Virus record (IMG/VR): IMGVR_UViG_3300021425_004462 | Span: 32,001 to 96,000 of that record | DNA: 64,000 nt | Strand: one strand, 5' to 3' | Origin: a virus | The notes under the pieces: model-generated | What the model was told of the DNA's origin: nothing | Seen by the model: only the letters and a program-made list of their open reading frames with translations | Databases searched by the model: none | Translations under genes and position numbers: made by a program | Part shown: positions 3,226 to 36,874 of the stretch, one piece after another | Numbering within the stretch: position 1 is the first letter of the stretch | Layout: each line of letters begins with the position of its first letter

Positions 3226-3230
3226 TACAC
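3226..3230 (-). promoter_or_regulatory. GTGTA motif 10 nt before the DUF1501 ATG (TTGACT also present at 3248-3243)
   Basis: Recurrent GTGTA-N9-10-start motif. Confidence 0.7.
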
Positions 3231-3254
3231 AATTTTGAGAAAAGTCAACACAAA

Positions 3255-3259
3255 GTGTA
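3255..3259 (+). promoter_or_regulatory. GTGTA motif 9 nt before GTG 3269
   Basis: Recurrent motif. Confidence 0.65.
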
Positions 3260-3268
3260 TGATATATT

Positions 3269-3655
3269 GTGCAGTTTTTATTACTTATCTTCTTAACTTG
3301 CAGTATTTTATGCGCTAAATTACAGATTAAAGATTATTTGGATGATTGCGATTGGTGCAAGAATCAGCTTAAAAGCACTCAACCTTTAGATATTGGTGAA
3401 TGGAGTATGAGATGCCAAAAAAAGCCGAAACCAATATGGTTTAATTATAGAAATATAGGCAGAGTCTATGGAACTTATAAAGAAAAAACTTCTATGTGTT
3501 GGATTTATTCTGAGAAATTAGGCTGGATATATAACACTCCTCAATACAAAGATTATATTTATACTCACAAACTTGGATGGATATATATAAAAGATGGTAA
3601 GGTTTATGTTTTTAAAAAGAAAAAGTGGGATTATTTTACAAATATAAATTCATGA
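3269..3655 (+). CDS. Small secreted protein with CxxC and Trp/Tyr-rich (WIY..LGWIY) repeats
   Basis: Hydrophobic N-terminus, CDWC, WIYSEKLGWIY and YIYTHKLGWIY; has its own GTGTA motif. Confidence 0.7.
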   Translation: MQFLLLIFLTCSILCAKLQIKDYLDDCDWCKNQLKSTQPLDIGEWSMRCQKKPKPIWFNYRNIGRVYGTYKEKTSMCWIYSEKLGWIYNTPQYKDYIYTHKLGWIYIKDGKVYVFKKKKWDYFTNINS

Positions 3656-5931: not shown

Positions 5932-5936
5932 TACAC
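5932..5936 (-). promoter_or_regulatory. GTGTA motif (30 nt before ATG 5901), directly after a terminator
   Basis: Recurrent motif with a longer spacing than the other sites. Confidence 0.5.
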
Positions 5937-7126: not shown

Positions 7127-7167
7127 AATTATATATTGTTGAGGGTTAAAATATTATAACCTATATT

Positions 7168-7783: not shown

Positions 7784-9211
7784 TTATTTATTTTCGTGGT
7801 GTCCGCCTTTAGAGGATTTGGGCTTTTCATGGGTGTAGCCCATTTTTTTCATCTTAAGGTGATCTTCTAAAGTTTTGGCTTTATAGCCTTTTCCTGTCTT
7901 GGGGTCATACATCATATGGGGTTCAAAATCTTCTTTGGCATAATCTTTTTTCATTTTTTTAGATTGAGCTTTTTTAATTGCTTCTTTTGAAGGATAGTCT
8001 TTATCTCCTGGCTTCGCAGGTTTATAGTTTTTGCCCATTCTTTTTTTCTTTTTTTGAATGTTTTCCCAAAGTCCTGCATCAGAAGTTTTTTCTTGTTTTT
8101 TAAGAATTGCGTCTTGTAATGGCTTGGGTAATTTTTTTTGCTTTTCTGTTAGGCCCGCTTCTCCTTTTTCATATAAAGAGCTTTTCATTTTATCGTATTG
8201 CATGGCACATGTAGCATATGTTTTATCTTTATCCATTCCTGCTGTATTGACTAAATCCTTATCGTAGCTCGCACAATGATCCATGAATGGTTTTTTCATA
8301 TAATCTTCAGCGGCTTCAGAAGATTCTTGAGGCGCTTCTGACTTTTCTTCTTCTCCTTTAGTCATTTTAGTAACACTTTTTTTACTCCACATTTTACAGC
8401 TCCAATAGCGGGCTTTTGTTTTTGGCCCAGGGTTTTCGCAGTTGTGGCGAGCTCTAAAATTCTTGCGACGACCAGGGTCATCACGTTTGATTTCCATATT
8501 TGGATCACCAAAATTTACTTTAACAACATTTCCTTTTTCGTTTTTAACGTAAACAGAAAACTTTTTTGGACCTTTGGGTGTTCTAAAAGGTTTGTTTAGT
8601 TTTTTTCCTTTATTCGATTCTGCCGCCCAACTTTCTTCGCTCACATACTCTTCGAAGCCTAGCTCATCAACATCAATAAAAATTGTACTCCACATTTCAT
8701 CTGTAAACTCCGGATCTTCTTGAAGCTGGTGGTTATAAATATCTAACTTCGCTTCAATGAAATCTTCTTCTGTGAAAAAGTTTTCTTCTCGCACTCCATC
8801 ATCAATAAGAACGTTCGCAGAAGCTTTAGCAATATCTTGATCAGCTTTCCTGTAGGAGTCTTTTACTTTGCCGCCTCTCACCATTTTTAAAAATGTATTT
8901 ACTCGAGCCATGGCCCATTGACCTCTACTTTTGCCTGGTCTATGGCTGGATGAAAATGCTCCTGCCCCTCTGCGATAAACTTTCTTTAATTGTGAAAGCG
9001 TAACCTTTTTGCTGTATTTTGAATTATGTTCTTTAACTTTTGATTTGAGAGACTCTAATACTTTTTCTGAAAAGGTAATTTTTCCGCCTTTTTCTCCTGC
9101 GCTTCCTGGCTTATTTTTATCTGAGCCTTTGCGTTTTTCTGATTTTTTTGCGGGTGTTTGCGCTGAACTCTTTGGTCCAGGACGTTTAGCTGAGTGAGAT
9201 TCGTTTTCCAT
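7784..9211 (-). CDS. Modular Lys-rich phage protein (DUF5824-like and DUF6321-like modules), probable internal head protein
   Basis: LKKVYRRGAGAF..SHRPG...QWAMARVN and VNFGDPNM...RRKNFRARHNC...ARYWSC modules; preceded by the GTGTA motif. Confidence 0.65.
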   Translation of the reverse strand: MENESHSAKRPGPKSSAQTPAKKSEKRKGSDKNKPGSAGEKGGKITFSEKVLESLKSKVKEHNSKYSKKVTLSQLKKVYRRGAGAFSSSHRPGKSRGQWAMARVNTFLKMVRGGKVKDSYRKADQDIAKASANVLIDDGVREENFFTEEDFIEAKLDIYNHQLQEDPEFTDEMWSTIFIDVDELGFEEYVSEESWAAESNKGKKLNKPFRTPKGPKKFSVYVKNEKGNVVKVNFGDPNMEIKRDDPGRRKNFRARHNCENPGPKTKARYWSCKMWSKKSVTKMTKGEEEKSEAPQESSEAAEDYMKKPFMDHCASYDKDLVNTAGMDKDKTYATCAMQYDKMKSSLYEKGEAGLTEKQKKLPKPLQDAILKKQEKTSDAGLWENIQKKKKRMGKNYKPAKPGDKDYPSKEAIKKAQSKKMKKDYAKEDFEPHMMYDPKTGKGYKAKTLEDHLKMKKMGYTHEKPKSSKGGHHENK

Positions 9212-9220: not shown

Positions 9221-10177
9221 TTACACAAATTTTTCTTTATTTTCTATGTACCATGAGTATGTTTTTTTGATTCCGTCTCTGAGTGATGTTGCAGGCTTGT
9301 ATCCCATTTTTAATAATTTATTATTGTCCATTTTTTTGCGATAAGTTCCATCTGGTTTAGATGAGTCGAATAATATATCTCCTTTATAGTTAACTATATC
9401 TTGTATTATATTAGTTAATTCAAGAATAGAAACTTCATCTTCAGAGCCGCAATTAATATGAGAAATTTTTTGATCATATATGTCTTTAGCCTCGACATTT
9501 TCTAAGCAATATTTTAATGCATCAGCTAAATCATCGACGTATAAAAATTCACGCAAGGGCTTTCCTGTGCCCCATACTTCGATATTCTTTTCGTTATTTT
9601 CTTTTGCTTCGTGAACTTTTCTGATGAGAGCTGGTAGCACATGAGAGCTTTTTAAATCAAAGTTATCTCTAGGGCCATACATATTGCAAGGCATAACTGA
9701 ATAAAAATTATTTTTATATTGATCATAGAAGCTTTCGCATAATTTGATTGCTGCTATTTTTGCAATTGCATATGGTTCATTGGTTTTCTCTAACACATCG
9801 GTTAGAAGGCTATCTTCTGTGATTGGTATTTTTGCATCTCTAGGGTATATGCAAGAGCTGCCGAGATTTATAAGTTTGTGAACATTATACACATGGGAAG
9901 CGTGAATTAAATTACTTGCTATCTGCAGGTTTTGATATATAAAATCTGCACGGTAGATATTGTTTGCAAGAATTCCTCCGACTTTTGCTGCACAAATTAT
10001 GACTACATCAGGCCTTTCTTGCCCAAAGAATTTATTAACTTCTGCTTGATTGGTTAGATCTAATTCCTTTCGGGTTTTGGTTAATAAATTTTTATAACTA
10101 TTTTTAGTAAGATTATCTAGAACCGCAGACCCTACCATTCCGTTGTGCCCGGCAATGAAGATTTTTTTATTATTCAT
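9221..10177 (-). CDS. fcl: GDP-L-fucose synthase
   Basis: AGHNGMVGSA, AAKVGGI, LGSSCIYP, YAIAK, SHVLPAL, WGTGKPLREF. Confidence 0.95.
   Translation of the reverse strand: MNNKKIFIAGHNGMVGSAVLDNLTKNSYKNLLTKTRKELDLTNQAEVNKFFGQERPDVVIICAAKVGGILANNIYRADFIYQNLQIASNLIHASHVYNVHKLINLGSSCIYPRDAKIPITEDSLLTDVLEKTNEPYAIAKIAAIKLCESFYDQYKNNFYSVMPCNMYGPRDNFDLKSSHVLPALIRKVHEAKENNEKNIEVWGTGKPLREFLYVDDLADALKYCLENVEAKDIYDQKISHINCGSEDEVSILELTNIIQDIVNYKGDILFDSSKPDGTYRKKMDNNKLLKMGYKPATSLRDGIKKTYSWYIENKEKFV
9222..9226 (-). promoter_or_regulatory. GTGTA motif 10 nt before ATG 9211
   Basis: Recurrent motif. Confidence 0.7.
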
Positions 10178-11597: not shown

Positions 11598-12669
11598 CTA
11601 AAAAGTCATCTAATTTTTCTTTGTTTTGCCAGTGCGGACATCCATCGTAATTCATTTTTACTATTTCATCTCCATCTTCTAGCTCAAGCTCGTGTTTGCA
11701 ATCAATAAATGCGCTTTTTTTAATTTTACCTTCAGAATCTTTTAATACATAATATTCCATAGGTTTGCGGTATGGACAAATAAAAGCTTTTATTGGTTCT
11801 CCATTTTTATCCAAAACGGGTTGACCTCTTGACATTTTATAACCATCTTTTCCGCAAGCTAAAGGTCCTCCGAAAGTTCCATCTCTTGGAAAATCTTGTT
11901 TAGCAGCAAGGTTGCTAATTGCGGCATTTTCATCAAAATTATCAAGATACTCTTGAAATTGAGTTAATTGATACTCAAAACCTTCGAGTTCTTCAGGTGT
12001 AATTTTATCCATACGCAAATAGCCTTTTCCATAATTACCTAAGAGATCTTTATCTAGATCAAATCTCAGAAACAAAAATTCGCTTTGGGGGTCTGTTTCT
12101 GGCATGAGGTGTTTTACTGCCAGGCAATATATTAAATTCTGTAAATTATCTGTTACCTCCTTACCTTTAAAAACTGACTTGCTACTTTTAAAATCTCGAA
12201 TAACGACAGAATTGTCTTTGTATACAAAAAGTTTATCTATATATCCGCGAATTGCATACCTAATTCCTTGTTCTTCTTTATGTATTTCTAGGTCAAAAAA
12301 TTGTTCTGATTCAGCTTTTACTGGCTTTTCTTCGCTGTCGCCAAAGAAGTCGCACCTTAAGCCGTTAACTATCATTTCATCTATTAATTCAAGATTCTCT
12401 GAGTCGTTTACAGAAAGTTCTTCGGCTTCCTTTTTCACTTGCGCTGCTACAACTTCTGTATTCCAAATTGTACCTTCTTTTACTATTTTGTTGAATTCTC
12501 TTTTATGTTTGTCACCTAATAGCTCAAATACATTGTGGCAAATAGTTCCTCGACTTGATCCATCATTTCCTGAATCTGGAAGTTTTAATTTGTAGTTGCA
12601 CCAATAAGTCCAGCTACAAGTTTGTGCGGTTTTTATTCTACTTGCGGATAATTTAGTTAACTCACTCAT
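11590..12669 (-). CDS. PD-(D/E)XK nuclease (RecB/AddB/Cas4-like exonuclease)
   Basis: LSASRI...C, RGTICH, RGYIDK, IRDFKSS, Q..IY motifs; C-terminal Cys residues. Confidence 0.85.
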   Translation of the reverse strand: MSELTKLSASRIKTAQTCSWTYWCNYKLKLPDSGNDGSSRGTICHNVFELLGDKHKREFNKIVKEGTIWNTEVVAAQVKKEAEELSVNDSENLELIDEMIVNGLRCDFFGDSEEKPVKAESEQFFDLEIHKEEQGIRYAIRGYIDKLFVYKDNSVVIRDFKSSKSVFKGKEVTDNLQNLIYCLAVKHLMPETDPQSEFLFLRFDLDKDLLGNYGKGYLRMDKITPEELEGFEYQLTQFQEYLDNFDENAAISNLAAKQDFPRDGTFGGPLACGKDGYKMSRGQPVLDKNGEPIKAFICPYRKPMEYYVLKDSEGKIKKSAFIDCKHELELEDGDEIVKMNYDGCPHWQNKEKLDDFLDV

Positions 12670-15219: not shown

Positions 15220-15248
15220 ATGGTATCATATATTATGAATTTAGTCAA
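15220..15248 (-). promoter_or_regulatory. sigma70-type promoter, leaderless onto dnaB
   Basis: TTGACT-N17-TACCAT-N6-ATG. Confidence 0.7.
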
Positions 15249-15536: not shown

Positions 15537-15541
15537 TACAC
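15537..15541 (-). promoter_or_regulatory. GTGTA motif 10 nt before ATG 15526
   Basis: Recurrent motif. Confidence 0.7.
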
Positions 15542-17382: not shown

Positions 17383-17411
17383 ACATTAACATATATATAT
17401 TTTTTTGTCAA
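17383..17411 (-). promoter_or_regulatory. sigma70-type promoter, leaderless
   Basis: TTGACA-N17-TAATGT-N6-GTG. Confidence 0.7.
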
Positions 17412-19726: not shown

Positions 19727-19906
19727 TTAGTCTTTACACTCTAAGTCGGTTATTTTCGCGGTAATTGTTTGCCCGTTCTCTAATTCGATAGTTGCAAAGA
19801 TAGCTCCGTCATCTGGCCCTCCGATTTCTTCATATTCATGTATGATTTTTCCGACCATTTCTACGCCATTAACTCTAACTATGCACATTTTGGGTTTTTT
19901 ATTCAT
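19727..19906 (-). CDS. Hypothetical small beta-rich protein; start re-called to ATG 19906
   Basis: GTGTA motif at 19921-19917 is 10 nt before MNKKPK. Confidence 0.65.
   Translation of the reverse strand: MNKKPKMCIVRVNGVEMVGKIIHEYEEIGGPDDGAIFATIELENGQTITAKITDLECKD
19735..19739 (-). promoter_or_regulatory. GTGTA motif 9 nt before ATG 19725
   Basis: Recurrent motif. Confidence 0.6.
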
Positions 19907-19916: not shown

Positions 19917-19921
19917 TACAC
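19917..19921 (-). promoter_or_regulatory. GTGTA motif 10 nt before ATG 19906
   Basis: Recurrent motif. Confidence 0.65.
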
Positions 19922-19986: not shown

Positions 19987-19991
19987 GTGTA
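19987..19991 (+). promoter_or_regulatory. GTGTA motif 9 nt before portal ATG 20001
   Basis: Recurrent motif. Confidence 0.7.
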
Positions 19992-23089: not shown

Positions 23090-23094
23090 GTGTA
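23090..23094 (+). promoter_or_regulatory. GTGTA motif 9 nt before ATG 23104
   Basis: Recurrent motif. Confidence 0.7.
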
Positions 23095-23103
23095 TAATAT
23101 AAC

Positions 23104-23619: not shown

Positions 23620-23621
23620 TC

Positions 23622-24302: not shown

Positions 24303-24311
24303 ATATTATTT

Positions 24312-24316
24312 TACAC
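24312..24316 (-). promoter_or_regulatory. GTGTA motif 9 nt before ATG 24302, directly after a terminator T-tract
   Basis: Recurrent motif. Confidence 0.7.
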
Positions 24317-24342: not shown

Positions 24343-24372
24343 CGAGATAACTAAATATCTTTCTCGTAGATG

Positions 24373-25104: not shown

Positions 25105-25113
25105 ATATTGATA

Positions 25114-25118
25114 TACAC
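25114..25118 (-). promoter_or_regulatory. GTGTA motif 9 nt before ATG 25104
   Basis: Recurrent motif. Confidence 0.7.
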
Positions 25119-25149
25119 GCAAAAATTATTAAATTGAGAATTTTTATTT

Positions 25150-27129: not shown

Positions 27130-29030
27130 TTTAAAAAATTTTTCTTGCAACCTAATGGAATAAATGAAACGTTATCAGCGACAGCGTCGCTTCTGTAGTA
27201 TTGTCGAAATACATGTTTGAAATTTTTGTAATGATCTATCTCTGCGTAGCAATGTTCGTCACTAAGGTGAACTAATATGCAGTTTTTACATTTATTGAAA
27301 TATTCCTTCAGTGATTTAATTCGGTTTTTTAAAAATTGTCTAACATTTTCTTCATAAAGGTTTACATTTTTTGCATATATATCACTATATACTATAACGC
27401 TATTTTCTTGAGGGTTTTTCATTTCGATATCAAATACTTTTTCGGGATTCATGTCTTGAAATAATTCTAATATAAAATCTTCTTCATATAAGTTATTGTT
27501 TAAGAATACAATTTTTGCCTCAATAGGTTTTGTGATGGACCGCTTTAGTTTATGGAGATCTATCGTGTTTCCCTTTGTGTACATTTTATTATTAAAATCT
27601 TCTGATAAAGAGTTTATGAAAACATTTTTTCTGCCTTGACTAAGGAAGTAATCTAAGTATTTAAAATCTCCATAATCTTCCTTTTTGCCACAAGGAGGTA
27701 GGGGTCTTCCTGGAATTTTAATCCATAGATTTGGAATATTGAATGCATCAGCACAAATTAATCCATGTAGTGAGCTACTTACTATAGCAGAGCAAGAGTA
27801 GATTTTATCTATAACATTTTGCCATTTATCTGTGGGGTTAATTAAATGGAATCTATCGTCATCTCTGATTAAATTTTTAAAAATATCTATATTAGAAATG
27901 TGTGGCACTAATCCTATTTTTTTTCCCAGCTCTTTATTTTTTTTAGGCTTGTAAAACATGGGTAAAAGTAAAGCCGGGTCACCGAGGTAGGTATTGCTAA
28001 CATCCATTCCTGCTGAGCGTACACATTGGAGTGTTAATGGCCCCCTAACGCATCTGAATTCATTATTGAAATTTGGTATCTTTTCTGAGTGGTGGTGTAG
28101 ACCTGCACCGCAGACGATTTCTTTTTCTTTGAGATCGCCTAGAGTTGAACCTATTAGTTTAATTTGTTTATATTCACCTTTACAATTAAATTTTACGCTA
28201 TCTCCGAATAAAAACTTAGCGATGGGCACGTTTAACTCGTCTCCAAAATTGCCGAAACCTTTTTTATAACGCCAGTACGAAACGTTAGTAACTTCTTTGG
28301 ATGAAAATTTTTCTTTATCGTGTCTTATATCTGAGTTTTTATCAATTTCAGGGTTGTCATTTTTTTCATGTAATTGATATGACATTAATGGGTTCAGGTG
28401 GTAAATAGAATTTGGCGCAGAGAATAATTTGTTTTGATTGAAAAATTTTTGCATAAAGTTATCTAGGGCCTCATTTATTCCTCCTTGTTCTACCCACTGA
28501 CATAAAGTGGATGCTGCTTGCTTGCTTAGTATGTATGAGCTTGCGTTCATATGCCAATAATGATCATTTTCTGAGAAGAAATTATTTTTTTTAATATTAA
28601 AGAAGTGGTTATTGTATTCTTTTGTTACCTTATGATAATGAGGTTTATTCCAGGGTTGGCAGCCACCTAGGTATATTAAGTTATAATTATTAGGTATATA
28701 ATTACTGTAAACTTGATTCCAGGAATTGGTAAACCCTTTTTTAAAGACTACATCGTCTTCTAGTATTAAATAATTATCGGCCTCTCTATCTAGTGTTAGC
28801 TGTTTCCATAACCTGTAATGACTTAGAGCGCATGCTATTTCTGCTTTTGTTAGCTTATTGAAAGATTTTTTAAAAATATTTTTTATTTCTTGATTAAGTT
28901 CTAATTCTTTTGCGTTAATAGCTGGAAACCTTTCCGCTGAAAATGGTAGGTTTTTGTTTATATGATCTAACCTATCTTTTCGTCTATCAAGGTTTATAAA
29001 AAAAGATCTACTTATTCGATTTAATTTCAT
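27126..29030 (-). CDS. Multidomain glycosyltransferase: GT25 + polysaccharide pyruvyltransferase-like + exostosin-like N-terminal half
   Basis: FINLDRRKDR, EIACALSH, ILEDD; NFGDELN, VRGPLT, GDPALL, SSSLHG; HLSDE..FRQYY..IPLG. Confidence 0.85.
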   Translation of the reverse strand: MKLNRISRSFFINLDRRKDRLDHINKNLPFSAERFPAINAKELELNQEIKNIFKKSFNKLTKAEIACALSHYRLWKQLTLDREADNYLILEDDVVFKKGFTNSWNQVYSNYIPNNYNLIYLGGCQPWNKPHYHKVTKEYNNHFFNIKKNNFFSENDHYWHMNASSYILSKQAASTLCQWVEQGGINEALDNFMQKFFNQNKLFSAPNSIYHLNPLMSYQLHEKNDNPEIDKNSDIRHDKEKFSSKEVTNVSYWRYKKGFGNFGDELNVPIAKFLFGDSVKFNCKGEYKQIKLIGSTLGDLKEKEIVCGAGLHHHSEKIPNFNNEFRCVRGPLTLQCVRSAGMDVSNTYLGDPALLLPMFYKPKKNKELGKKIGLVPHISNIDIFKNLIRDDDRFHLINPTDKWQNVIDKIYSCSAIVSSSLHGLICADAFNIPNLWIKIPGRPLPPCGKKEDYGDFKYLDYFLSQGRKNVFINSLSEDFNNKMYTKGNTIDLHKLKRSITKPIEAKIVFLNNNLYEEDFILELFQDMNPEKVFDIEMKNPQENSVIVYSDIYAKNVNLYEENVRQFLKNRIKSLKEYFNKCKNCILVHLSDEHCYAEIDHYKNFKHVFRQYYRSDAVADNVSFIPLGCKKNFLK

Positions 29031-30129
29031 TTATTAATTTACTATATATATTTATATTTTTATATTCAAACGGACTAAATTGACTTAGGTGGGATCGAGC
29101 TTGCTGTGTATATTCACTTAAAGTTTTTTGATGATTTAAGATTGCATTATATAATTGATTGGATCCCATTTTGATGTCGTGTTTGCTATAATAATATCCT
29201 ATATCACATAGACTGGGGCAATTATGGATTAGGGGTAAGCCCATATATAATTGCTCGAAATTCGCATAATTGAATTCATTATCATTCTGGTGGCTAATAA
29301 CTGTACTACCAAACTTACTTAATGCATCGAGTGACCCCCATCTGTTATTAAAAAAACAGAAATTTTTCTTGCTTAAGATATTTAGTCTTTTTACGAAATT
29401 TTCAAAATATTTTCCAGTCCTGATTTTTTCTGCGCAAAAAGTATTGATAGCTCCTAAAGTGCCGGGCCTTTCGGTTTCAAGTCTTTCGCAAATCATTAAG
29501 GGGACAAAGCATGTTTTTATTGTATTTAAGTTTGGTTCGAAAATGCAGATTTTATTAACATAGTCAGGCTTAAAGAATGGATTTAAGTTTTTTTTATTTA
29601 GATCTTTAATTTTATCTTGAACAAAAGATGGTTCCCATATCATGGGAGTTACTATAACATCATCCATCCCGTAGTATGTTTTTATGTATTCTATACCAGA
29701 GGAGTGATGTGGAAGGATCCATATTTGATCTATATACTTATTGGTATCTTTGGGATTAATTTGTATATCTTGATTTTTATATCTTTCGTCAAATAAAGTA
29801 TTATATGTATCTATGTATAATTTATGACCAAAATGAGCTATGATAATTTTTAATTTAGGATTACGATCCTTTAATTCTTTATATATTTTTGCGGGGATAT
29901 CGTATCCCGCGATAATTAGAATGTCTAGTTTTTCGTTTTTATCGATAATTAAATCTTGTAGTAGCATACCCTTGTGCTTAAAATGCATTTTATTTTTGGG
30001 TATATCTTTAGTAATATAATAGCATTCATGACCTATTCTTTTGAATAAATCATAAAGGAAGACAATATTTTGCTGCATTCCATTTGCCCAGAATGCAATG
30101 GACATATCGAGGGTAATTCCTATTTTCAT
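29008..30129 (-). CDS. DUF2827 family protein (GT-B-like)
   Basis: FWANGMQQN, IWILPH, PMIWEP, IFEPNLN..KT...P.MICE, ISHQ..NEFNY, PLIHN. Confidence 0.75.
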   Translation of the reverse strand: MKIGITLDMSIAFWANGMQQNIVFLYDLFKRIGHECYYITKDIPKNKMHFKHKGMLLQDLIIDKNEKLDILIIAGYDIPAKIYKELKDRNPKLKIIIAHFGHKLYIDTYNTLFDERYKNQDIQINPKDTNKYIDQIWILPHHSSGIEYIKTYYGMDDVIVTPMIWEPSFVQDKIKDLNKKNLNPFFKPDYVNKICIFEPNLNTIKTCFVPLMICERLETERPGTLGAINTFCAEKIRTGKYFENFVKRLNILSKKNFCFFNNRWGSLDALSKFGSTVISHQNDNEFNYANFEQLYMGLPLIHNCPSLCDIGYYYSKHDIKMGSNQLYNAILNHQKTLSEYTQQARSHLSQFSPFEYKNINIYSKLINEIKSNK

Positions 30130-31202
30130 GACAATAATTTTTTATATTTCTCTATCACGAATGGATTGTTAGGTGAGAATTTATTAAGTATAGTTTCAGA
30201 TTGTTTCTTGTATTCTTCTAAATTTTTATCGTGAAAAGTTAACGCTAGCCTTAGTGCTTCAGCGCCTTTTTTCGTATCATATTCAGGGTAGAAATAACCA
30301 GCTGATTTTATATATTCAGAGTTATGCACTAGGGGGATATTGAAATATAATGCTTCAAGATAAGTATAATTCAGCCCGTTTAATAATTGATTTGATAGTG
30401 ATACTGAAATTTTGTTCGCAAATAAATTAGTTACTCTTTGCCTGTGATTGAAATTCACTTTTCCACCTTTTTGTATATCTAGTTGCCACATCATTCTTTT
30501 GAAGAAATTAGCTTCTTTTAGTTTTGATGTGCAATAAACATTTAATGATTCAAATAAACTTTTATCTTCCGAGTAAAGTTCTTCTGCTATCATGATTGAA
30601 GGTAGGCAGTGTTTTGTTGTGTTTAAGTTTGGTTCAAAAATTCCTATATGCTTGGGCTTATCTTTTGAATAAAAGCAACTTTTACCGGCTTTATTCCATA
30701 TCTTTTCATGCATTTTCATATATTGCGAACTCCATATATATGGAAGTTCGAGGACTTTTTCATTTTTGTAATAAGTTCTGAAATAATTGAAGGAAAATTT
30801 GTAATGAGGTGATACCCAATTTTCGTCAACTCTATATGGGATTAAGGGGGATGTTGTATTCCAGCTTGATTGTTCTATGTCAGCTAATAATCTATTTCCA
30901 TAGTGGACATGAATGTTCCTGCATGCAGGTTTAAGTTCTTTTATCTTATCTATTATTGAATGCTTTAGCATCCATGTAGTTTGTAGGACAGCATATAGAT
31001 CATCTATATAATCTAGTATTTCATGCTCTTCTAATATTAATATATCTGTAGGTGGGTCTACGCAATCATCTATTTTGTGATTTACTGCAATTATAGGCTC
31101 GAAGCCTATGTTTTGTAAAAGTTCAGCCAGGAATACAATGTTTTGTTGCAAGCCATTGCTGAAAATTCCGTTTTTGTAATTCGCGGTCAATAATATTCTC
31201 AT
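30126..31202 (-). CDS. DUF2827 family protein (GT-B-like), paralog of 29008..30129
   Basis: IFSNGLQQN, WVSPH, PYIW, IFEPNLN..K, NGLNYTYLE, PLVHNS. Confidence 0.75.
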   Translation of the reverse strand: MRILLTANYKNGIFSNGLQQNIVFLAELLQNIGFEPIIAVNHKIDDCVDPPTDILILEEHEILDYIDDLYAVLQTTWMLKHSIIDKIKELKPACRNIHVHYGNRLLADIEQSSWNTTSPLIPYRVDENWVSPHYKFSFNYFRTYYKNEKVLELPYIWSSQYMKMHEKIWNKAGKSCFYSKDKPKHIGIFEPNLNTTKHCLPSIMIAEELYSEDKSLFESLNVYCTSKLKEANFFKRMMWQLDIQKGGKVNFNHRQRVTNLFANKISVSLSNQLLNGLNYTYLEALYFNIPLVHNSEYIKSAGYFYPEYDTKKGAEALRLALTFHDKNLEEYKKQSETILNKFSPNNPFVIEKYKKLLS

Positions 31203-31212
31203 TGACTAAATT

Positions 31213-31217
31213 TACAC
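31213..31217 (-). promoter_or_regulatory. GTGTA motif 10 nt before ATG 31202
   Basis: Recurrent motif. Confidence 0.7.
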
Positions 31218-31219
31218 AA

Positions 31220-34183
31220 TTAATCTTCAGAAATAACAAAAGAAGCTGGATTTAATGTTGATGTATTTGCGGATCTATTTAGTTTATCTAAATTAAAAAT
31301 AAAACTTCCGTCTGAATCCGTAAGTCCGCTTGAATTGCATATTGTAAATTTATTATTCACATCGTAAGAATTATCTAATTGTATTCCATCAGAATAAGAT
31401 TGATAGGTATATATTGTTCCTCCATTTGGAGCTGTACCGCCTTCAGAAACATTTTCAAAAGTTACGTTACTAGTGTTTGAAACAGTAGTTCCTATGTTAG
31501 CAAGGCCTGCCCCTAAGCTATTTGGGGAAGCATTGACTGTTCTGGATGAGAATCCTGCAAGGGTATAATTTGGATTAGTTAAAATTGAATTTGTTGTAAT
31601 TCCCGCTAAATTAGTTGCAGTTACACTCCATGAAAAAGTTCCTTTTGTATCAGAGTCTGAAACTGTAATTGTATAAGAATTGCTTGTTTTTCCTGTTCCA
31701 GAACTATTTATAGTAAGAGTAGATTGGTTGCTTTGGGACGAATCTAGAGTTAAAGTTGGAGTGTTTAGCATTAACTGTGAACTTTCAAGATCGAAATTGT
31801 CTGATATTCCTGACGGTGAGCTTGATAGTTTTAAAGACAAATTGTTTATTGATAAAGTTAGTGGTGCGTTCGCTATATTTACTACATCTTGGAGTTGGAT
31901 AGTTATACCATTTGATGTTTTTGTTCCTGATAGGGTGAAATTGTCAATAGATATATTATATGAACCACCTAGTCTAGAAACCTCTTTTTTAACTAAAGCG
32001 TACCCGTTTGAACTAACCTTGGGTGAAGTATTAATGCTTACAGTTTGCGTACCCCCTGAAGTGGGTTGTAATCCACTATGACTTAAATTTACGCCAGATG
32101 ACGCAACTGCAGATAAATTTGGTTGAGAGTTGATGAAGTCTATCACTGGGCCGACATAGGGCCATCCAGCAGGGCGTTTTGGGAAATTAATTATAAGCAT
32201 ACTCCCGGAAGTAGTGACAGATGCAGGGTTTCCATAGTTAATTAAATTTAATCTAAGATTTGTATAGGCTCCTTCAGCGTAAGGTCCGGTCATGGTAACT
32301 GTTACTACCCCTCCGGGTTGATTTAAAAGTGTTCTAACTGTAAAATTTCCATAATATTCTAATTCATTGTCGAATTGACTGTTGGTAGAGAAATTTAATT
32401 CACCGGCTCCGCCTAAGTTGCTATCATCTATGTAAAGAGTGTCTATGTTATTCTTTTCAAAATTAATAGTAGCGGATTCAGAATTTTTTAATGCGCTTTG
32501 ATTAAGTGGATAATCTATTCCTAGTATGTTTAAGTGAGGTATTGATCCGTTGTTTAATGTCGCTGTATCTGATGTCGTAAACTTATCGCTCAGTGTGTTG
32601 AAATTGTTTTTTGCAATAAATGCCGCTGGTTGATTGCCATCTCTAGTTGAAGAGCCTATTGAGCCGTATACGTTTATAGGAACGGTGAATTTATAACTTC
32701 CATCTGGTAGTGTTGACTTGTTGTAATTTGAATTATATGATGACTGAGATCCATTTGATACACCTTCATTCCTAACCGATAAAGATATATCATTTATAGA
32801 AGACCCTTTTCCGTCTATAAAAACTTCTGATTCAACTATGTCTCCAGCTTTTAACTCGGATGAACCTATTGAATGTGGAGATGTAGCCGATGAAGCTATC
32901 GAACTTAATGAAGCTCCAGTTATCTGTGGACCATTCGCTATTTTTACTATGGCGTTTTTTCTATCAACAGCTCCGTTTCCAGATCTTACCGCAAATATTT
33001 CAATATTATTAGAGTTATTAAAAATTCCCTGAATATAATCAACTGTTTTTGTGGATTCGAATGAATTGGGATTGTTTATTGATACGTCTTGACTTGGGGT
33101 GTATAAAATTGAGTCTGTAGAACTATTCCAATTGGATATGCTATTAGAGAAGGTGGTAGATTCTCCCTCTCTTAGTCCATCAGAGCGACCGTTATATGAT
33201 GTTGGATTATTTATAGATATAATTGGGTAATCTTGGTCTACAGGTCGAGTTCCGCTTACGTTTGAAATAACTTCAGAAGAAACGGCTTTTCCAGTAGATC
33301 CAAAAGCGTTAACAGCTTGTAGTGATACTCCATATGATCCATTTACTATATTTGATACGGTAATAGGTATTGTCGCAGTGAAGATACCGTTGTTTTCGGT
33401 TAGCGCATAACTAGTGAAATTTATTTCTTCAGCTAAACCTGATTCTAAAACCTTAATAGAATCAACATCACTTGTATCGAAGTCTGCATAAATATTTAAA
33501 ATATCTCCTTGTTTTAAATGAGAGCTCCCTTGGTTTTGTCCGTTTTTCGGTGTAGAATTTTGTATAGAATCTATCCTGATTTCTATAGCTTCTGGCCCGC
33601 CTCCCGCTTCTGTTATAGGTAGAATAATACTCCTGCCATTTGCTTCTCCACTAAGTTGTGTTTTACCTTCTATGTTTACATTGTCTAGAAAACCAATAAA
33701 TCTTCTTGTATGTTCTCCTAGTTGCTGTATGTTTTCAAGAGGTATTTCTTGTCCTTCTATAGAGGCTTGCCCCAAGTAATCTCCATTGGGTCCATCCCAC
33801 TGCATTTCCACTTTTAAATTAGAGGCAGATGTAACTTCAACGGAAGATAGATATAAATTTGGGTTAGGGGTATTGTTGTAATTTTTATTTGTTACTCCGT
33901 CATTGTCTATAACGTCAGAAAAGAAGACGAATTCAGCTGAACCTGACTCAATTTGAGATATCGATCCACCTAGTGTTCTAACGTCTACTCCGTCTAAAGT
34001 TAATCCGCTAACAAAATTTCCACTAAGGAACTCTACCGAATCCGTCGTTCTTATGTTTTGGTCCATAGAAACACGTAAACCGCCGAAATATAGGTTATCA
34101 AAAACTCCTGTAGCCCAGGCTCTTGTTATCTTACCTATGCCACCTTCACCACTGTTTCTTGGAACTAAATTTCTTGTACCCAT
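31220..34183 (-). CDS. Large S/T/N-rich virion protein with Ig-like beta-sandwich repeats
   Basis: N-terminus like 23104..23619 (PR.SGEGG.G...W); repeated LK.G(D/E) and 'A.N..G' Ig-like motifs. Confidence 0.6.
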   Translation of the reverse strand: MGTRNLVPRNSGEGGIGKITRAWATGVFDNLYFGGLRVSMDQNIRTTDSVEFLSGNFVSGLTLDGVDVRTLGGSISQIESGSAEFVFFSDVIDNDGVTNKNYNNTPNPNLYLSSVEVTSASNLKVEMQWDGPNGDYLGQASIEGQEIPLENIQQLGEHTRRFIGFLDNVNIEGKTQLSGEANGRSIILPITEAGGGPEAIEIRIDSIQNSTPKNGQNQGSSHLKQGDILNIYADFDTSDVDSIKVLESGLAEEINFTSYALTENNGIFTATIPITVSNIVNGSYGVSLQAVNAFGSTGKAVSSEVISNVSGTRPVDQDYPIISINNPTSYNGRSDGLREGESTTFSNSISNWNSSTDSILYTPSQDVSINNPNSFESTKTVDYIQGIFNNSNNIEIFAVRSGNGAVDRKNAIVKIANGPQITGASLSSIASSATSPHSIGSSELKAGDIVESEVFIDGKGSSINDISLSVRNEGVSNGSQSSYNSNYNKSTLPDGSYKFTVPINVYGSIGSSTRDGNQPAAFIAKNNFNTLSDKFTTSDTATLNNGSIPHLNILGIDYPLNQSALKNSESATINFEKNNIDTLYIDDSNLGGAGELNFSTNSQFDNELEYYGNFTVRTLLNQPGGVVTVTMTGPYAEGAYTNLRLNLINYGNPASVTTSGSMLIINFPKRPAGWPYVGPVIDFINSQPNLSAVASSGVNLSHSGLQPTSGGTQTVSINTSPKVSSNGYALVKKEVSRLGGSYNISIDNFTLSGTKTSNGITIQLQDVVNIANAPLTLSINNLSLKLSSSPSGISDNFDLESSQLMLNTPTLTLDSSQSNQSTLTINSSGTGKTSNSYTITVSDSDTKGTFSWSVTATNLAGITTNSILTNPNYTLAGFSSRTVNASPNSLGAGLANIGTTVSNTSNVTFENVSEGGTAPNGGTIYTYQSYSDGIQLDNSYDVNNKFTICNSSGLTDSDGSFIFNLDKLNRSANTSTLNPASFVISED

Positions 34184-34192
34184 TATTTATAT

Positions 34193-34197
34193 TACAC
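34193..34197 (-). promoter_or_regulatory. GTGTA motif 9 nt before ATG 34183
   Basis: Recurrent motif. Confidence 0.7.
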
Positions 34198-34205
34198 AAA
34201 TTGTA

Positions 34206-35462
34206 TTAAAATGATATATCGTCAGTAAATGCTTCAGGGCCAGTATTGTATCTCCATATATTAGACCTTAACTCTAGGTCGTTTTCGCTTTTTAGTATCC
34301 ACATTGTATCAGAAATAAAAACATGATCGTTTGGTGTTACATCTCCGTCTTCATTTATTTCGAAGGCTTCTTGTAATTCGTACCTATTTAAAGATCCAGT
34401 TATTTCAAATGAAGTGTCATCTAGCCTCGAAACCTGTCTTTCCACAGATTCTATTTTAGAATCTAGTAAAGCTCCTGTTTGATTTAAATTACCACTGAGA
34501 GATTCTATTTTAGAGTCTAGGAAGACTCCTGTTGTGAAACTACCACTAAGAGATTCTATTTTAGAGTCTAAAAAGTTTTTTGTTTCGCTTAAATCACCGC
34601 TTAAAGATTTTATTTCAGAGCTTAGTAAATCTCCTGTTTGGTTTAGAGTTCCGCTAAGAGATTCTATTTTAGAGTCTAAGAAGGCACCTGTTTGATTTAA
34701 GGTTCCGCTGATAGATTCTATTTTAGAATCTAAGAAGATGCCTGTTTCATTTAGGGTTCCACTAAGAGATTCTATTTTAAAGTCTAAGAAGGCACCTGTT
34801 TGATTTAAGGTTCCGCTGAGAGATTCTATTTTAGAATCTAAGAAGATGCCTGTTTCATTCAGGGTTCCGCTGAGAGATTCTATTTTAGAATCTAAGAAGA
34901 TGCCTGTTTGATTCAGGGTTCCACTGAGAGATTCTATTTTAGAATCCAAGAAGGCGCCTGTTTGATTTAGGGTTCCACTGAGAGATTCTATTTTAGAATC
35001 CAAGAAGGCGCCTGTTTGATTTAAGGTTCCGCTGAGAGATTCTATTTTAGAATCTAAGAAGGCGCCTGTTTGATTTAAGTTTCCGCTTAATTCTTGAATA
35101 AATTTTAATACATTAACGCCGCTAATATGTATTGATTCACTGTTTCCAGATATAAAGTCGATTGTATCTGTATTTATGTGTCCAGCTTCTCCACTATCAA
35201 AAAATATCTTTAACCCAGATAATTCAGTATAGTTTCCTGTTTTTACAGAAAGAGTATTAGAGACTATATCGTCTGATATGGTTCTTGTGTTTGTTAGTAC
35301 ATCAAAAAAGCCGGAAGTAGATTCTAGTATGTACGAGTTTAGTTTTACTGTTTCTAACCTCTTGCCATCTATCAAGACAAGAGGATCTTCGGGTTCTTGT
35401 CCGACAATGTACTTTTTGTCCCCTATCCTTCTTAAGGATTTTTTAATTTCAAAGAAATCCAT
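34206..35462 (-). CDS. Coiled-coil fibre-like protein with 18-aa SG/TG repeats
   Basis: 12 units of ESLSGTLNQTGAFLDSKI. Confidence 0.7.
   Translation of the reverse strand: MDFFEIKKSLRRIGDKKYIVGQEPEDPLVLIDGKRLETVKLNSYILESTSGFFDVLTNTRTISDDIVSNTLSVKTGNYTELSGLKIFFDSGEAGHINTDTIDFISGNSESIHISGVNVLKFIQELSGNLNQTGAFLDSKIESLSGTLNQTGAFLDSKIESLSGTLNQTGAFLDSKIESLSGTLNQTGIFLDSKIESLSGTLNETGIFLDSKIESLSGTLNQTGAFLDFKIESLSGTLNETGIFLDSKIESISGTLNQTGAFLDSKIESLSGTLNQTGDLLSSEIKSLSGDLSETKNFLDSKIESLSGSFTTGVFLDSKIESLSGNLNQTGALLDSKIESVERQVSRLDDTSFEITGSLNRYELQEAFEINEDGDVTPNDHVFISDTMWILKSENDLELRSNIWRYNTGPEAFTDDISF
34452..35096 (-). repeat. 54-bp coding tandem repeat, 12 units (one is 51 bp)
   Basis: Repeated agagattctattttagaatc...cctgtttgattt units. 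Confidence 0.95.
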
Positions 35463-35467
35463 AAAAA

Positions 35468-36859
35468 TTAAAAATTATCGTATAACCCTGTTTCTTTGTA
35501 TGTAACTGCGTACTTTATAGAGAAACCTGATATGGTATGCGGTCTTTTAACATAAATTCTTCCGGCTTCATCGTTTTCTATCTTTACTGCCATATCTATA
35601 TCTAAATATATAAGATCTTCTGTTTTGGGAGACACGGGCTCAGAGTTGTCAAGTCTTCTTTCTGATGTGTGAAATTGTATAGGATAAGATGATTCATTGT
35701 GAATTACGACGCTTTCAACTAAACCTCTCTCATAAAGATCATTAAAGTCTATAAGCTCGTAAGAATTAATTAAGCTTGCGGATTTATTTTCTTGCCTCAT
35801 TCCAAATTCTGTGTCTGTATGGAAGCAAAATTTACTATCTACGCATCTATTAGGGTCTGTATATTCTGCATGAATAAAGTAATCCGGGTGACCTGTTTCT
35901 AATAATGATTTATTTTTTCTTCCATTTTCAAAATAAGTTCCAAATACATCATCCATGAGGTTGCGATTTTCTCCATAACAATTTCCGCTATCTATACCGT
36001 ATCTTTTTGTATCAGAAATAGATTCAAGAAGTAAAAAATCTTCTTCTATTTTTTGAGAAACAGTTTTCGTTCTAAGCTTCCATGGTTGGTATAATTCCCT
36101 TCTTTCTATTTGGTGCCATATGTCTACAAGTTTTCCGGAAATTCCTACAAGCTCTCCAGAAATACCCACCAATTCTCCTGATATTCCATGAGTGCCTTCA
36201 ACTAATTCTTCTGAAATTTCTACTAATTCTCCAGATATACCTTCCGTTCCTTCAACTAGTTCCTCTGATATTTCATGAAGCTGTCCAGAAATCCCTTTTA
36301 ATTCTGAAGACATATTATCTAGATTTCCTGAAACACCAGATAGTAATCTATGAGTTTCTTGATCTGAATCTATTTCTACATCAATGTGAATACTAGAAAG
36401 TTCTCCAGAAATACCCGAAAGTAATCTATGAGTTTGTGTGTCCTCATCAATTTTTACATCAATATGAATATCTGAAAGTTCTCCCGAAATTCCAGATAAA
36501 AGCCTATGGGTTTCTATGTCATTAGACAGAGAAAGTTGGCCAGAGATTCCAGATAAAAGCCTATGGGTTTCTATGTCATTAGACAGAGAAAGTTGGCCAG
36601 AGATTCCAGATAAAAGCCTATGGGTTTCTATGTCATTAGACAGAGAAAGTTGACCAGAGATTCCAGATAAAAGCTTATGAGTTTCTGTATCGCTGGGCTC
36701 AATTGATAAGTCTAAATTATCTATCGTTATTCCGCCAGCCGGCTCCCATCTACCACTAGCTTTATTCCACTGATATGAAAAAGTAGGCTGAGGTGATAGG
36801 TGATCTAATTGCGTTATATCTTTATATAACGGATTATTTTTATAATCTTCGTTGGCCAT
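35468..36859 (-). CDS. SG-repeat protein, probably virion-associated
   Basis: ETHRLLSGISGQLSLSND and GISGELV repeats; GTGTA motif upstream. Confidence 0.65.
   Translation of the reverse strand: MANEDYKNNPLYKDITQLDHLSPQPTFSYQWNKASGRWEPAGGITIDNLDLSIEPSDTETHKLLSGISGQLSLSNDIETHRLLSGISGQLSLSNDIETHRLLSGISGQLSLSNDIETHRLLSGISGELSDIHIDVKIDEDTQTHRLLSGISGELSSIHIDVEIDSDQETHRLLSGVSGNLDNMSSELKGISGQLHEISEELVEGTEGISGELVEISEELVEGTHGISGELVGISGELVGISGKLVDIWHQIERRELYQPWKLRTKTVSQKIEEDFLLLESISDTKRYGIDSGNCYGENRNLMDDVFGTYFENGRKNKSLLETGHPDYFIHAEYTDPNRCVDSKFCFHTDTEFGMRQENKSASLINSYELIDFNDLYERGLVESVVIHNESSYPIQFHTSERRLDNSEPVSPKTEDLIYLDIDMAVKIENDEAGRIYVKRPHTISGFSIKYAVTYKETGLYDNF
36130..36690 (-). repeat. 57-bp and 21-bp coding repeats
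   Basis: About three near-identical 57-bp units at ~36490-36690, then degenerate THRLLSG(I/V)SG and GISGELV units. Confidence 0.85.
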
Positions 36860-36869
36860 ACGAAGATAT

Positions 36870-36874
36870 TACAC
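36870..36874 (-). promoter_or_regulatory. GTGTA motif 10 nt before ATG 36859
   Basis: Recurrent motif. Confidence 0.65.

Follow-up and report, generated by a model that had tools for sequence, protein, structure and literature searches.

In sigma70-family holoenzymes, the TG of an extended -10 element (TGn-TATAAT) can replace the -35 element. The late promoter of phage T4, TATAAATA, is read with gp55, gp33 and gp45, and the late mRNAs of this phage have leaders with Shine-Dalgarno (SD) sequences. The promoters of phage phiYS40 are said to be -10-only and read by the host sigma factor. Most middle and late mRNAs of this Thermus phage, studied by Sevostyanova et al. in 2007, are described as leaderless (PMC3594737). 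In phage phiEco32, gp36 is described as acting with gp79 at middle and late promoters that consist of the single element tAATGTAtA, with AATGTA centred at -11.5 and transcription starting 6-8 bp past the element (PMC8948821, PMC12276001).

In this work, a recurrent GTGTA motif (the box) was studied in the genome of an uncultured marine phage, which belongs to a mostly marine clade. The window was the whole 64,000-nucleotide stretch of this genome that had been annotated. No description of a GTGTA motif was found in the literature searched. Judging from its arrangement in the DNA, the box is likely to be a -10-like, single-element promoter that acts at the DNA level and yields mRNAs with a leader of 0-4 nt.

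Results

The initial annotation had listed 13 genes with GTGTA 9-10 nt before the start codon and one site 30 nt before the start at 5901, and all of them were found at these coordinates in the window (Table 1). The gap between the box and the start codon was 9 nt at seven of the 13 sites and 10 nt at six, the spacers were A/T-rich, and the start codon was ATG in every case except GTG 3269. Among the gene roles proposed earlier, the tail sheath and the glycosyltransferase block found support, and 'portal' and 'head-like' were not confirmed. Assembled contigs from the RNA libraries of two seawater metatranscriptomes spanned 24362-25085, although such contigs cannot show 5' ends.

Table 1. GTGTA boxes, sigma70-type promoters and sigma-like genes (window coordinates unless marked)
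Feature	Coordinates	Strand	Context
GTGTA box	3226..3230	-	10 nt 5' of ATG 3215; gene 1923-3215, DUF1501-like AMG; pairs divergently with box 3255..3259 (+)
GTGTA box	3255..3259	+	9 nt 5' of GTG 3269; gene 3269-3655
GTGTA box	5932..5936	-	30 nt 5' of ATG 5901; adjoins terminator-like hairpin 5962-5943 and T-run
GTGTA box	9222..9226	-	10 nt 5' of ATG 9211; gene 7784-9211
GTGTA box	15537..15541	-	10 nt 5' of ATG 15526; 93-aa ORF 15245-15526 within replication block
GTGTA box	19735..19739	-	9 nt 5' of ATG 19725; 79-aa gene, then 17408-19489; box within 3' end of upstream gene
GTGTA box	19917..19921	-	10 nt 5' of ATG 19906; divergent pair with box 19987
GTGTA box	19987..19991	+	9 nt 5' of ATG 20001; 661-aa gene, then 21989-23083
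GTGTA box	23090..23094	+	9 nt 5' of ATG 23104; 171-aa gene
GTGTA box	24312..24316	-	9 nt 5' of ATG 24302; adjoins terminator-like hairpin 24343-24323 and T-run
GTGTA box	25114..25118	-	9 nt 5' of ATG 25104; 243-aa gene 24373-25104
GTGTA box	31213..31217	-	10 nt 5' of ATG 31202; heads overlapping glycosyltransferase block 31202 down to 25150
GTGTA box	34193..34197	-	9 nt 5' of ATG 34183; tail sheath gene 31220-34183
GTGTA box	36870..36874	-	10 nt 5' of ATG 36859; 463-aa gene, then 34206-35462
Sigma70-type promoter TTGACT-N17-TACCAT with TGn	15220..15248	-	6 nt 5' of ATG 15213, DnaB-like gene
Sigma70-type promoter TTGACA-N17-TAATGT	17383..17411	-	6 nt 5' of GTG 17376
Sigma70-type promoter TTGACT-N17-TATAAT	40113..40141	-	7 nt 5' of ATG 40105; heads sigma203 operon
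Sigma70-type promoter TTGACA-N17-TAAGAT	40243..40271	+	7 nt 5' of ATG 40279; heads + strand operon 40279-53180
Sigma-70-family-like gene (sigma203), 203 aa	38657..39268	-	one of two candidate box readers
Second sigma-like gene, 262 aa	genome 12926-13714		outside window; more conserved than sigma203

GTGTA itself was scarcer in the window than expected by chance (39 occurrences versus 62.8 ± 7.2 in shuffles). The pattern GTGTAN{9,10}ATG occurred 12 times versus 2.37 ± 1.62 times in shuffled sequence (the maximum was 7, and 0 of 100 shuffles reached 12), and all 12 matches were located at ORF starts; the enrichment over shuffled sequence on which the initial annotation had staked the motif was thus obtained. 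When every 5-mer was scanned at offsets -40 to -5 from 107 crudely called ORFs of the 122,059-bp record, GTGTA at -14 ranked first (10 observed, 0.036 expected, p = 5.5e-22) and GTGTA at -15 ranked third (4 observed, p = 6e-8).

The gap was also counted in a pooled set of 1591 unique gene starts from the phage and 100 related loci. GTGTA was found 77 times at a gap of 9 nt, 28 times at 10, 7 times at 11, 29 times at 12 and 8 times at 13, and control words were found 0-5 times per gap. At gaps of 15-45 nt there was no excess (27 GTGTA versus 27 ATGTG and 33 TACAC as control words). Box 5932..5936 is a possible promoter with a leader, of a class that is statistically unsupported. At the 149 pooled box starts with gaps of 9-13 nt, an SD-like tetramer was present in only three cases, in agreement with the earlier remark that these starts have no SD; SD-like sequences were found at 178 of 1415 other starts in the clade. 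ATG was the start codon at 145 of the 149 box starts; the comparison starts were longest-ORF starts, which inflates their non-ATG share. Two sequence features expected of leaderless mRNAs, an AUG start and no SD, were therefore found at the box starts.

The consensus of the box was wwwwGTGTA-A-w-A-w-A-A, and the commonest hexamers counted from its TA were TAATAT, TAATAA and TAAAAT. No information content was seen upstream of the box, and a -35-like TTGA(C) partner was nearly absent (2 of 102 GTGTA sites).

The motif was placed at the heads of gene groups, in divergent intergenic regions and just past terminator hairpins, and not at operon-internal genes. Of the 54 genes that follow a co-directional neighbour at a distance of 10 nt or less, 51 were without the motif, in line with the earlier statement that a gene lacking it is mostly coupled to an upstream gene or has a sigma70 promoter. 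Among the 49 genes with larger gaps, 19 had the motif 8-12 nt before the start and six more had it further upstream. Five divergent box pairs were found, and within 1-40000 each of the two best terminator hairpins was directly followed by TTTTTTGTGT.

GTGTA was counter-selected within genes on both strands, most strongly in antisense. In the phage coding DNA, the antisense form TACAC was the second most under-represented of the 1024 5-mers (24 versus 55.0), and sense-strand GTGTA was mildly depleted in the phage alone (rank 101, z = -1.9). In the coding DNA of relatives (1.0 Mb from 77 related loci), TACAC ranked second (O/E 0.58) and GTGTA eleventh (O/E 0.64) among the under-represented 5-mers. 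In a synonymous-shuffle test antisense control words were depleted too (TGTAA, z = -4.9; ATGTG, z = -4.5; TGTGT, z = -3.7), so part of the depletion may be compositional.

The motif was present in all 20 loci retrieved via two structural proteins. Among the loci retrieved via sigma203, GTGTA at -14 ranked first to third in four of six identity bins, down to 44% identity. It was outside the six best words in two small bins, one with 35 starts and one with 64; in the former, GTGTA at -15 was third. In relatives, orthologues of the 243-aa gene had CGTA or GGTA in place of GTGTA, with TTCCCA about 17 nt upstream; therefore, either the core may be looser than five letters or this gene may use another promoter class. 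Relatives of sigma203 were encoded on at least 275 IMG/VR contigs.

The host of the clade is probably a member of Opitutales (Verrucomicrobiota), an assignment made from one gene (DUF1501); the relatives of this phage gene were host-like. In five Opitutales genomes with close DUF1501 relatives, GTGTAN{9,10}ATG showed no excess over the reversed pattern, which indicates that the signal is phage-specific. Host promoters with leaders would escape this pattern.

Promoters of the sigma70 type were found in the same phages. Across the clade, the hexamer ended 6, 7 or 8 nt before a start codon in 55 of 92 matches to TTGAC-N17-19-TAnnnT. Because these promoters share the geometry of the box, a promoter abutting the start codon appears to be a general expression mode of the clade. 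TGn in the standard register was present in 21 of the 55 and GTG abutting the hexamer in two. The interpretation of the box as a standard extended -10 was rejected since its TG abuts TA with no intervening base. The GTGTA boxes form a class separate from the sigma70-type promoters.

The sigma-like nature of sigma203, proposed in the initial annotation, was corroborated by several searches. Sigma203 matched PHROG sigma families at 4e-8 and 4e-5 and TIGR02937 over positions 2-165 of 165 (E = 1.5e-10; 41 bits, under the cut-off of 42.9). It had no Pfam hit at E ≤ 0.001, and Sigma70_r2 scored 14.9 bits in a six-frame Pfam search. Its AlphaFold model had a pLDDT of 83, and the 48 PDB hits listed by Foldseek (ranks 1-50) were all sigma factors or sigma-containing RNA polymerase complexes; the TM-scores were low (0.29-0.42) and the hits were cellular sigma factors. 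Sigma203 thus has the sigma2 and sigma4 domains of the sigma-70 family, and its operon has a perfect sigma70-type promoter. The 262-aa product is an equally good candidate for the box reader. Both candidates were ECF-sized and two-domain with a region-4-like C-terminus. This end is kept in both, although the box promoter shows no -35 element. As both genes lie behind sigma70-type promoters, the proteins would be made early.

Discussion

Depletion within genes, placement at gene-group heads, a geometry shared with the sigma70-type promoters and the lack of a -35 partner support the single-element promoter suggested initially. GTGTA with the following A/T-rich run would be the core of this promoter, and its reader is probably a sigma factor made by the phage, so that the binder would be host core RNA polymerase with sigma203 or the 262-aa product. 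Transcription would start about 9-11 nt past the box, at the A of the start codon or 0-4 nt from it, and the mRNAs would consequently be leaderless or nearly so. This leaderless state is suggested by geometry, namely by hexamers ending 6-8 nt and boxes lying 9-10 nt before the start codon. Translation would then proceed without SD from the 5'-terminal AUG. The designation 'late' fits only in part, as non-structural genes (DUF1501-like, ClpB-like and a small gene of the replication block) are headed by the motif as well.

A host sigma factor is unlikely to be the sole reader of the box, whether the primary one through an unusual extended -10 (GTG-TAwwww) or an alternative one, with the phage sigma-like proteins acting elsewhere. 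The six bases from the box TA do resemble a -10 hexamer, as the three commonest ones show, the middle and late mRNAs of phiYS40 are reported to be mostly leaderless, and in Deinococcus, with its own polymerase, a -10 motif is described as adjoining ORFs (PMC12340547). However, the TG of the box is one base off the standard TGn, a shift that was rare among the sigma70-type promoters; the candidate-host-like genomes showed no excess of the pattern, with the reservation made above for promoters with leaders; and two conserved phage sigma-like genes would be left without a target. A signal in RNA, that is, a non-SD initiation element or a processing site in transcripts beginning further upstream, could produce the same sharp spacing of 9-10 and 12-13 nt, as a translation signal would look alike. 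The rarity of SD-like sequences throughout the clade is compatible with it, and some Verrucomicrobiota are listed as SD-poor (PMC10783764). Nevertheless, a promoter is favoured because the strongest depletion was antisense, on a strand absent from mRNA, where no translation signal could act. In addition, most operon-internal genes are translated without a box, boxes lie directly past terminator hairpins and in divergent pairs, and canonical DNA promoters are spaced alike from start codons, which makes an RNA-level signal quite improbable.

Phage polymerases typically use short promoters made of a single element, and the late promoters AACA-N6-TA/G of AR9 and TATG of phiKZ are described (PMC5312081). 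Moreover, the tail sheath shows a distant similarity to its counterparts in jumbo phages of the phiKZ type (28-32% identity, covering 20-46% of its length), and the record is only 86% complete. An unrecognised phage-encoded RNA polymerase, of the kind known from the phiKZ/AR9 or T7 groups, is nevertheless a very improbable reader of the box. A six-frame Pfam search of the record gave no match to RNA_pol_Rpb2_6 or RNA_pol_Rpb1_2 (controls were positive in 14 of 14 genomes), a result that bears on the phiKZ/AR9 type. No polymerase was recognised among 44 proteins scanned against Pfam and PHROG, and the two sigma-like genes imply the use of the host core enzyme.

If the reading of the box as a promoter for a phage sigma factor holds, a single five-letter word serves to map transcription units throughout an abundant group of phages, none of them in culture, and structural and synthetic-biology work gains a new pair of sigma factor and promoter whose -10 register is unusual. 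It would also be a natural case of two promoter classes fused to start codons, by which the choice of transcription start and translation initiation become one signal. Phage-driven leaderless translation would become testable outside the Deinococcus-Thermus group. Gene callers that expect SD will set wrong starts in these phages, where the box marks the correct one (20001 and not 19998, 25104 and not 25122, 19906 and not 19945).

A wider proposal, which seems rather doubtful at present, is that nearly every transcription unit of the clade is a leaderless mRNA, with early promoters for the host sigma and GTGTA promoters for the phage sigma both welded to start codons while the candidate hosts differ. 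If true, it would amount to a separation of phage from host translation imposed by the phage, would imply a phage factor, still undiscovered, by which ribosomes are biased towards AUGs at the 5' end, and would involve a sigma factor recognising G-T-G immediately upstream of the -10 TA, a new register.

Comparison with known systems

Of the known systems, phiEco32 gp36 and its element tAATGTAtA come nearest. In both phages a single element with a TGTA core occurs without a -35 element, its position relative to the transcription start being deduced here from geometry; with the 6-8 bp described for phiEco32, the start would fall on the A of ATG at the GTGTA boxes. As described, gp36 is a phage-made distant sigma homologue acting on the host core polymerase, for which there are candidate sigma factors here, and the early genes are read by host sigma70. 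In contrast to phiEco32, the word is GTGTA, in which the G two bases before TGTA is invariant, a counterpart of gp79 was not identified, and the host belongs to another phylum. Moreover, gp36 is described as having no homology to region 4, but a region-4-like end is retained in both candidates of the present phage. A PDB sequence search with sigma203 at E ≤ 1 returned no gp36 chain among its hits, although the PDB copy may not contain one. Leaderless transcripts are not described for phiEco32 in PMC8948821, where the word 'leaderless' occurs 0 times.

Like phiYS40 as described, the present phage is a large myovirus in which promoters abut ORFs and non-early mRNAs would mostly have no leader, an arrangement that implies translation of 5'-terminal AUGs. 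Unlike phiYS40, whose host phylum is rich in leaderless genes, it is associated with candidate host-like genomes in which such geometry was not seen. Further differences are that its early sigma70-type promoters abut start codons, that its box is the distinct word GTGTA and that it encodes sigma-like proteins.

The box resembles the extended -10 element in that a hexamer similar to TAnnnT is immediately preceded by an extension containing TG. It differs in that TG adjoins TA directly, a one-base shift, that another invariant G lies before the TG and that A is preferred at position -10. These genomes also contain the standard TGn form, which belongs to the other promoter class. A T4-type late promoter was rejected because the recurrent word is GTGTA, unrelated in sequence to TATAAATA; the candidates here are ECF-sized and two-domain. 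The T4 analogy drawn initially holds for a one-element promoter at -10 with a candidate phage sigma-like reader, and it is looser than the likeness to the phiEco32 element.

The GTGTA box upstream of start codons

The initial annotation had proposed that GTGTA was a one-element late promoter of the phage with little leader, and that it might be read by a phage sigma factor. All of the sites it had reported, 13 of them located 9-10 nt before a start codon and one at 30 nt (5932-5936), were found in place. GTGTA was rare as a word in the window (39 occurrences versus 62.8±7.2 in shuffled sequences). The proposed positional enrichment was confirmed: the pattern GTGTAN{9,10}ATG occurred 12 times versus 2.37±1.62 times in shuffled sequences, and 0 of 100 shuffles reached 12. 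All 12 occurrences were located at ORF starts, and the thirteenth site preceded a GTG start.

To guard against choosing the motif by eye, every 5-mer was scored at every upstream offset for 107 ORFs called over the whole record. The highest-ranking combination was GTGTA at -14 (10 observed, 0.036 expected, p=5.5e-22), with GTGTA at -15 in third place. The ORF caller was crude (longest ORF, greedy choice), and the ORF-scan and gene-gap counts rest on its 107 ORFs; it missed a 93-aa ORF at 15245-15526(-), a 113-aa ORF at genome 12652-12993 (genome coordinates refer to the whole record) and an end-truncated ORF starting at genome 120428. Boxes outside the window are listed in the table below. The logo consisted of an A/T-rich run, then the invariant GTGTA and then A-w-A-w-A-A. 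It contained no information further upstream of the box, and no -35 partner was found in the upstream logo or in the box set of the clade.

Boxes followed by a leader were also considered. AAGG-rich leaders after the boxes at genome 21043, 97177 and 110069 were first taken as support for such a class, which was dropped on the counts pooled over the clade. There, GTGTA at 15-45 nt from starts was no commoner than control words (27 versus 27 and 33), and SD-like words were present in 5 of the 27 leaders. Boxes at these distances, including that at 5932, are plausible singly but have no statistical support as a class.

The genes headed by the box included those for the tail sheath and, with a 29-nt gap, the tape measure protein, as well as a DUF1501-like gene, the glycosyltransferase block, a ClpB-like gene and a small ORF in the replication block. 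The label "late" would therefore be only partly apt, and "non-early" is safer.

Several longest-ORF starts at TTG are probably wrong, since a box or a sigma70-type promoter marks a downstream ATG (19998 to 20001, 25122 to 25104, 19945 to 19906 and 40141 to 40105). Separately, the word TCAACA preceded four start codons lacking GTGTA, at a distance of 10 nt or, once, 17 nt. No more than three of the four sites are independent, as two lie in a 3' end that is repeated between neighbouring fibre-like genes; TCAACA may be a third promoter class or a chance occurrence.

Coordinates of boxes outside the window, TCAACA sites and sigma70-type promoters
Feature	Coordinates	Strand	Remark
GTGTA box	genome 2737		9-nt gap
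GTGTA box	genome 10689		9-nt gap
GTGTA box	genome 11344		9-nt gap
GTGTA box	genome 112232		9-nt gap
GTGTA box	genome 116716		9-nt gap
GTGTA box	genome 120414		9-nt gap
GTGTA box	genome 11329		12-nt gap
GTGTA box	genome 21997		12-nt gap
TCAACA	window 7137-7142	-	before ATG 7126
TCAACA	genome 3690-3695	-	
TCAACA	genome 6608-6613	+	
TCAACA	genome 8442-8447	+	
sigma70-type promoter	window 15248-15220	-	precedes DnaB
sigma70-type promoter	window 17383-17411	-	precedes gene at 17376
sigma70-type promoter	window 40243-40271	+	precedes + strand operon at 40279
sigma70-type promoter	window 40113-40141	-	precedes operon at 40105, which holds the sigma203 gene
sigma70-type promoter	upstream region of genome 9131		outside window
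sigma70-type promoter	upstream region of genome 31807		outside window

Conservation across the clade

Between one and seven boxes at the same distance from start codons were present in all loci fetched by the sheath protein (4 loci) and by the 243-aa product of the gene at 24373-25104(-) (16 loci). Relatives of sigma203, the 203-aa sigma-like product of 38657-39268(-), were found on 275 viral contigs, and the loci of the best 80 of these 275 (83-44% identity) were grouped by identity into six bins. In two of these, the bins of 62-70% identity (p=1.6e-46) and of the 44-50% tail (p=1.5e-18), GTGTA at -14 outranked all other words, and in two more it ranked second or third. Two small bins, with 35 and 64 starts, did not have it among their six leading words, although GTGTA at -15 was third in the one with 35 starts. 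When this phage and 100 loci were pooled (1591 unique starts), gaps of 9, 10, 11, 12 and 13 nt were observed 77, 28, 7, 29 and 8 times, respectively, whereas reversed and complementary control words occurred 0-5 times at each of these gaps.

In orthologues of the 243-aa gene, CGTA or GGTA replaced GTGTA at the same distance from the ATG, and a conserved (G)TTCCCA was located approximately 17 nt upstream (at about 9930-10003 in the loci of relatives; compare window 25105-25160(-)). This variant may represent a looser core or another promoter class; together with (G)TTCCCA, it looks like a bipartite, ECF-style promoter.

sigma70-type promoters with the same geometry

Within 90 nt of starts in the clade, TTGAC-N17-19-TAnnnT ended 6, 7 or 8 nt before the start codon in 55 of 92 occurrences. 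Because bacterial holoenzymes usually start approximately 7 nt after the -10 hexamer, the A of the start codon should be the first nucleotide of transcripts of this early type, which makes the early genes appear leaderless as well. With the TA of GTGTA assigned to -12/-11, the box would occupy the same place as the sigma70-type hexamer. The boxes form a class separate from these promoters: the standard TGn extension was present in 21 of the 55 promoters and GTG abutted the hexamer in only 2, and a -35-like word at the right spacing was found in only 2 of 102 boxes. A generic sigma70 scan was not enriched over shuffled sequences (78 versus 76.5 and 76 versus 88.8), which leaves the strict TTGAC-N17-TAnnnT form next to start codons as the sole informative one.

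Candidate sigma factors

The proposal that 38657-39268 encodes a sigma-like protein was borne out. sigma203 matched PHROG sigma families and, over its whole length, the NCBIfam sigma70-ECF superfamily model (E=1.5e-10; 41 bits, just below the cut-off of 42.9). Its predicted fold consisted of two helical domains (mean pLDDT 83), and 48 of 48 PDB entries among the Foldseek matches listed (ranks 1-50) were sigma factors or RNA polymerase complexes containing one. The TM-scores were low, as expected for two mobile domains. The sigma203 operon begins with TTGACT-N17-TATAAT-N7-ATG (40141-40103(-)), and sigma203 should therefore be made early.

A second sigma-like gene, encoding 262 aa, was found outside the window at genome 12926-13714(+). 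Its product scored 26.7 bits on Pfam Sigma70_r2, above the cut-off, and 37 bits on TIGR02937. A Cys-rich insert separates its regions 2 and 4. A sigma70-like promoter is located upstream of this gene and the terminase just downstream; translation probably begins downstream of the TTG since the 113-aa ORF at 12652-12993, a zinc-ribbon ORF, overlaps the gene. The 262-aa protein was far better conserved, with 74-97% identity among the best 80 of 115 relatives versus 44-83% for sigma203 among the best 80 of 275, and the two genes co-occurred on large contigs. The two proteins are equally good candidate readers of the box. Searches with working controls found no RNA polymerase in the record; the search for a T7-type polymerase was uninformative because its controls gave no signal.

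The phage record and its putative host

The record is linear, 122,059 bp long and estimated to be 86% complete, with a GC content of approximately 33%; the window comprises its bases 32001-96000. It encodes a tail sheath (PHROG 15433), a tape-measure-like protein, a 2409-aa fibre with an endosialidase-chaperone end, the large terminase, DnaE, DnaB, SSB, ribonucleotide reductase, a ClpB-like ATPase and many glycosyltransferases. In a search for cultured relatives, no match was obtained when 17000-37000 was compared with phage records by megablast. The sheath protein matched only phiKZ-like jumbo phages (28-32% identity), DnaE had distant matches only, and sigma203 had only a weak match there, to the sigma factor of Synechococcus phage S-CBWM1. 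Judged by these searches, the record is without a close cultured relative, so that there is none to supply transcript data.

Proteins from marine Opitutia/Opitutales MAGs and from one SAG-like record shared 72-80% identity with the product of the DUF1501-like gene at 1923-3215(-), and Planctomycetota versions shared 35-52%. These identities suggest that this auxiliary gene, headed by a GTGTA box, was acquired recently, and this single gene hints, and no more, at a marine member of Verrucomicrobiota as the host. In five Opitutales genomes, neither the box-ATG pattern nor the sigma70-leaderless pattern was in excess over reversed controls. This absence fits a phage-specific system and argues that the geometry is not a habit of the host, whose assignment is itself putative. 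CCTGG and CCAGG were among the five most under-represented 5-mers in coding DNA of 77 related loci (O/E 0.58-0.59), a hint that CCWGG is avoided as a site of restriction or methylation.

Assembled contigs of two seawater metatranscriptomes contained 5-6% of the sampled words. They were identical to the window over 24362-25085, with small pieces elsewhere, which indicates that near-identical phages were present in those samples. In both runs, cover within 17000-36990 was highest over the gene at 24373-25104. The contigs carry no start, end or strand information, so this cover argues neither for nor against a transcription start at 25104, and the uncovered parts carry no meaning.

Promoter or translation signal

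A non-SD translation signal was the alternative to a promoter. The two readings differ in what should be avoided inside genes: an mRNA signal cannot be selected against on the untranscribed strand, whereas a promoter firing antisense can. When all 1024 5-mers were ranked in coding DNA against a third-order Markov expectation, TACAC, the antisense form of GTGTA, was the second most under-represented word of this genome (24 versus 55.0 expected, z=-5.3), and sense GTGTA was mildly low (22 versus 30.2 expected, rank 101). The coding DNA of 77 related loci (1.0 Mb) again had TACAC in second place (O/E 0.58, z=-13.4), and GTGTA was eleventh (O/E 0.64, z=-9.1). The first rank of TAAGA is trivial because this word contains a stop codon. 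The Markov ranking replaced a synonymous-codon shuffle test, in which GTGTA was depleted on both strands but some related control words were also depleted antisense. With that caveat, the antisense depletion favours a signal at the level of DNA.

The box was also distributed as expected from gene groups. It was lacking in 51 of 54 co-directional genes located no more than 10 nt after their neighbour, and among 49 genes with a larger upstream gap it was present at 8-12 nt in 19 and further upstream in 6 more. Divergent box pairs occupied five intergenic regions, and TTTTTTGTGT stood immediately after each of the two strongest terminator-like hairpins in 1-40000. Counter-selection, gene-group structure, the spacing shared with sigma70-type promoters and the separateness of the class together favour a signal read on DNA, and the GTGTA box is likely to be a promoter rather than a translation signal. 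As far as sequence can tell, the system would be a single-element promoter of the phage-sigma type, fused to start codons across the whole clade.

Comparison with known systems

In literature searches on phage late promoters, leaderless transcripts and phages of Verrucomicrobiota, no description of the box was found. According to a review, most middle and late mRNAs of Thermus phage phiYS40 are leaderless (PMC3594737). In Deinococcus, -10 motifs are placed next to ORFs (PMC12340547). In AR9 and phiKZ, phage polymerases recognise late promoters that are short words, and the leaders of AR9 transcripts range from 26 to 491 nt (PMC5312081).

The nearest known case is phiEco32, whose sigma factor gp36 reads the single element tAATGTAtA, with AATGTA centred at -11.5, starts transcription 6-8 bp downstream and uses no -35 element (PMC8948821, PMC12276001). 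The word, the sigma factor and the host all differ from those of the present phage, and leaderless mRNAs are not described in these accounts of phiEco32. By analogy, the phiEco32 spacing applied to the GTGTA box would make transcription start at, or directly beside, the A of the ATG.
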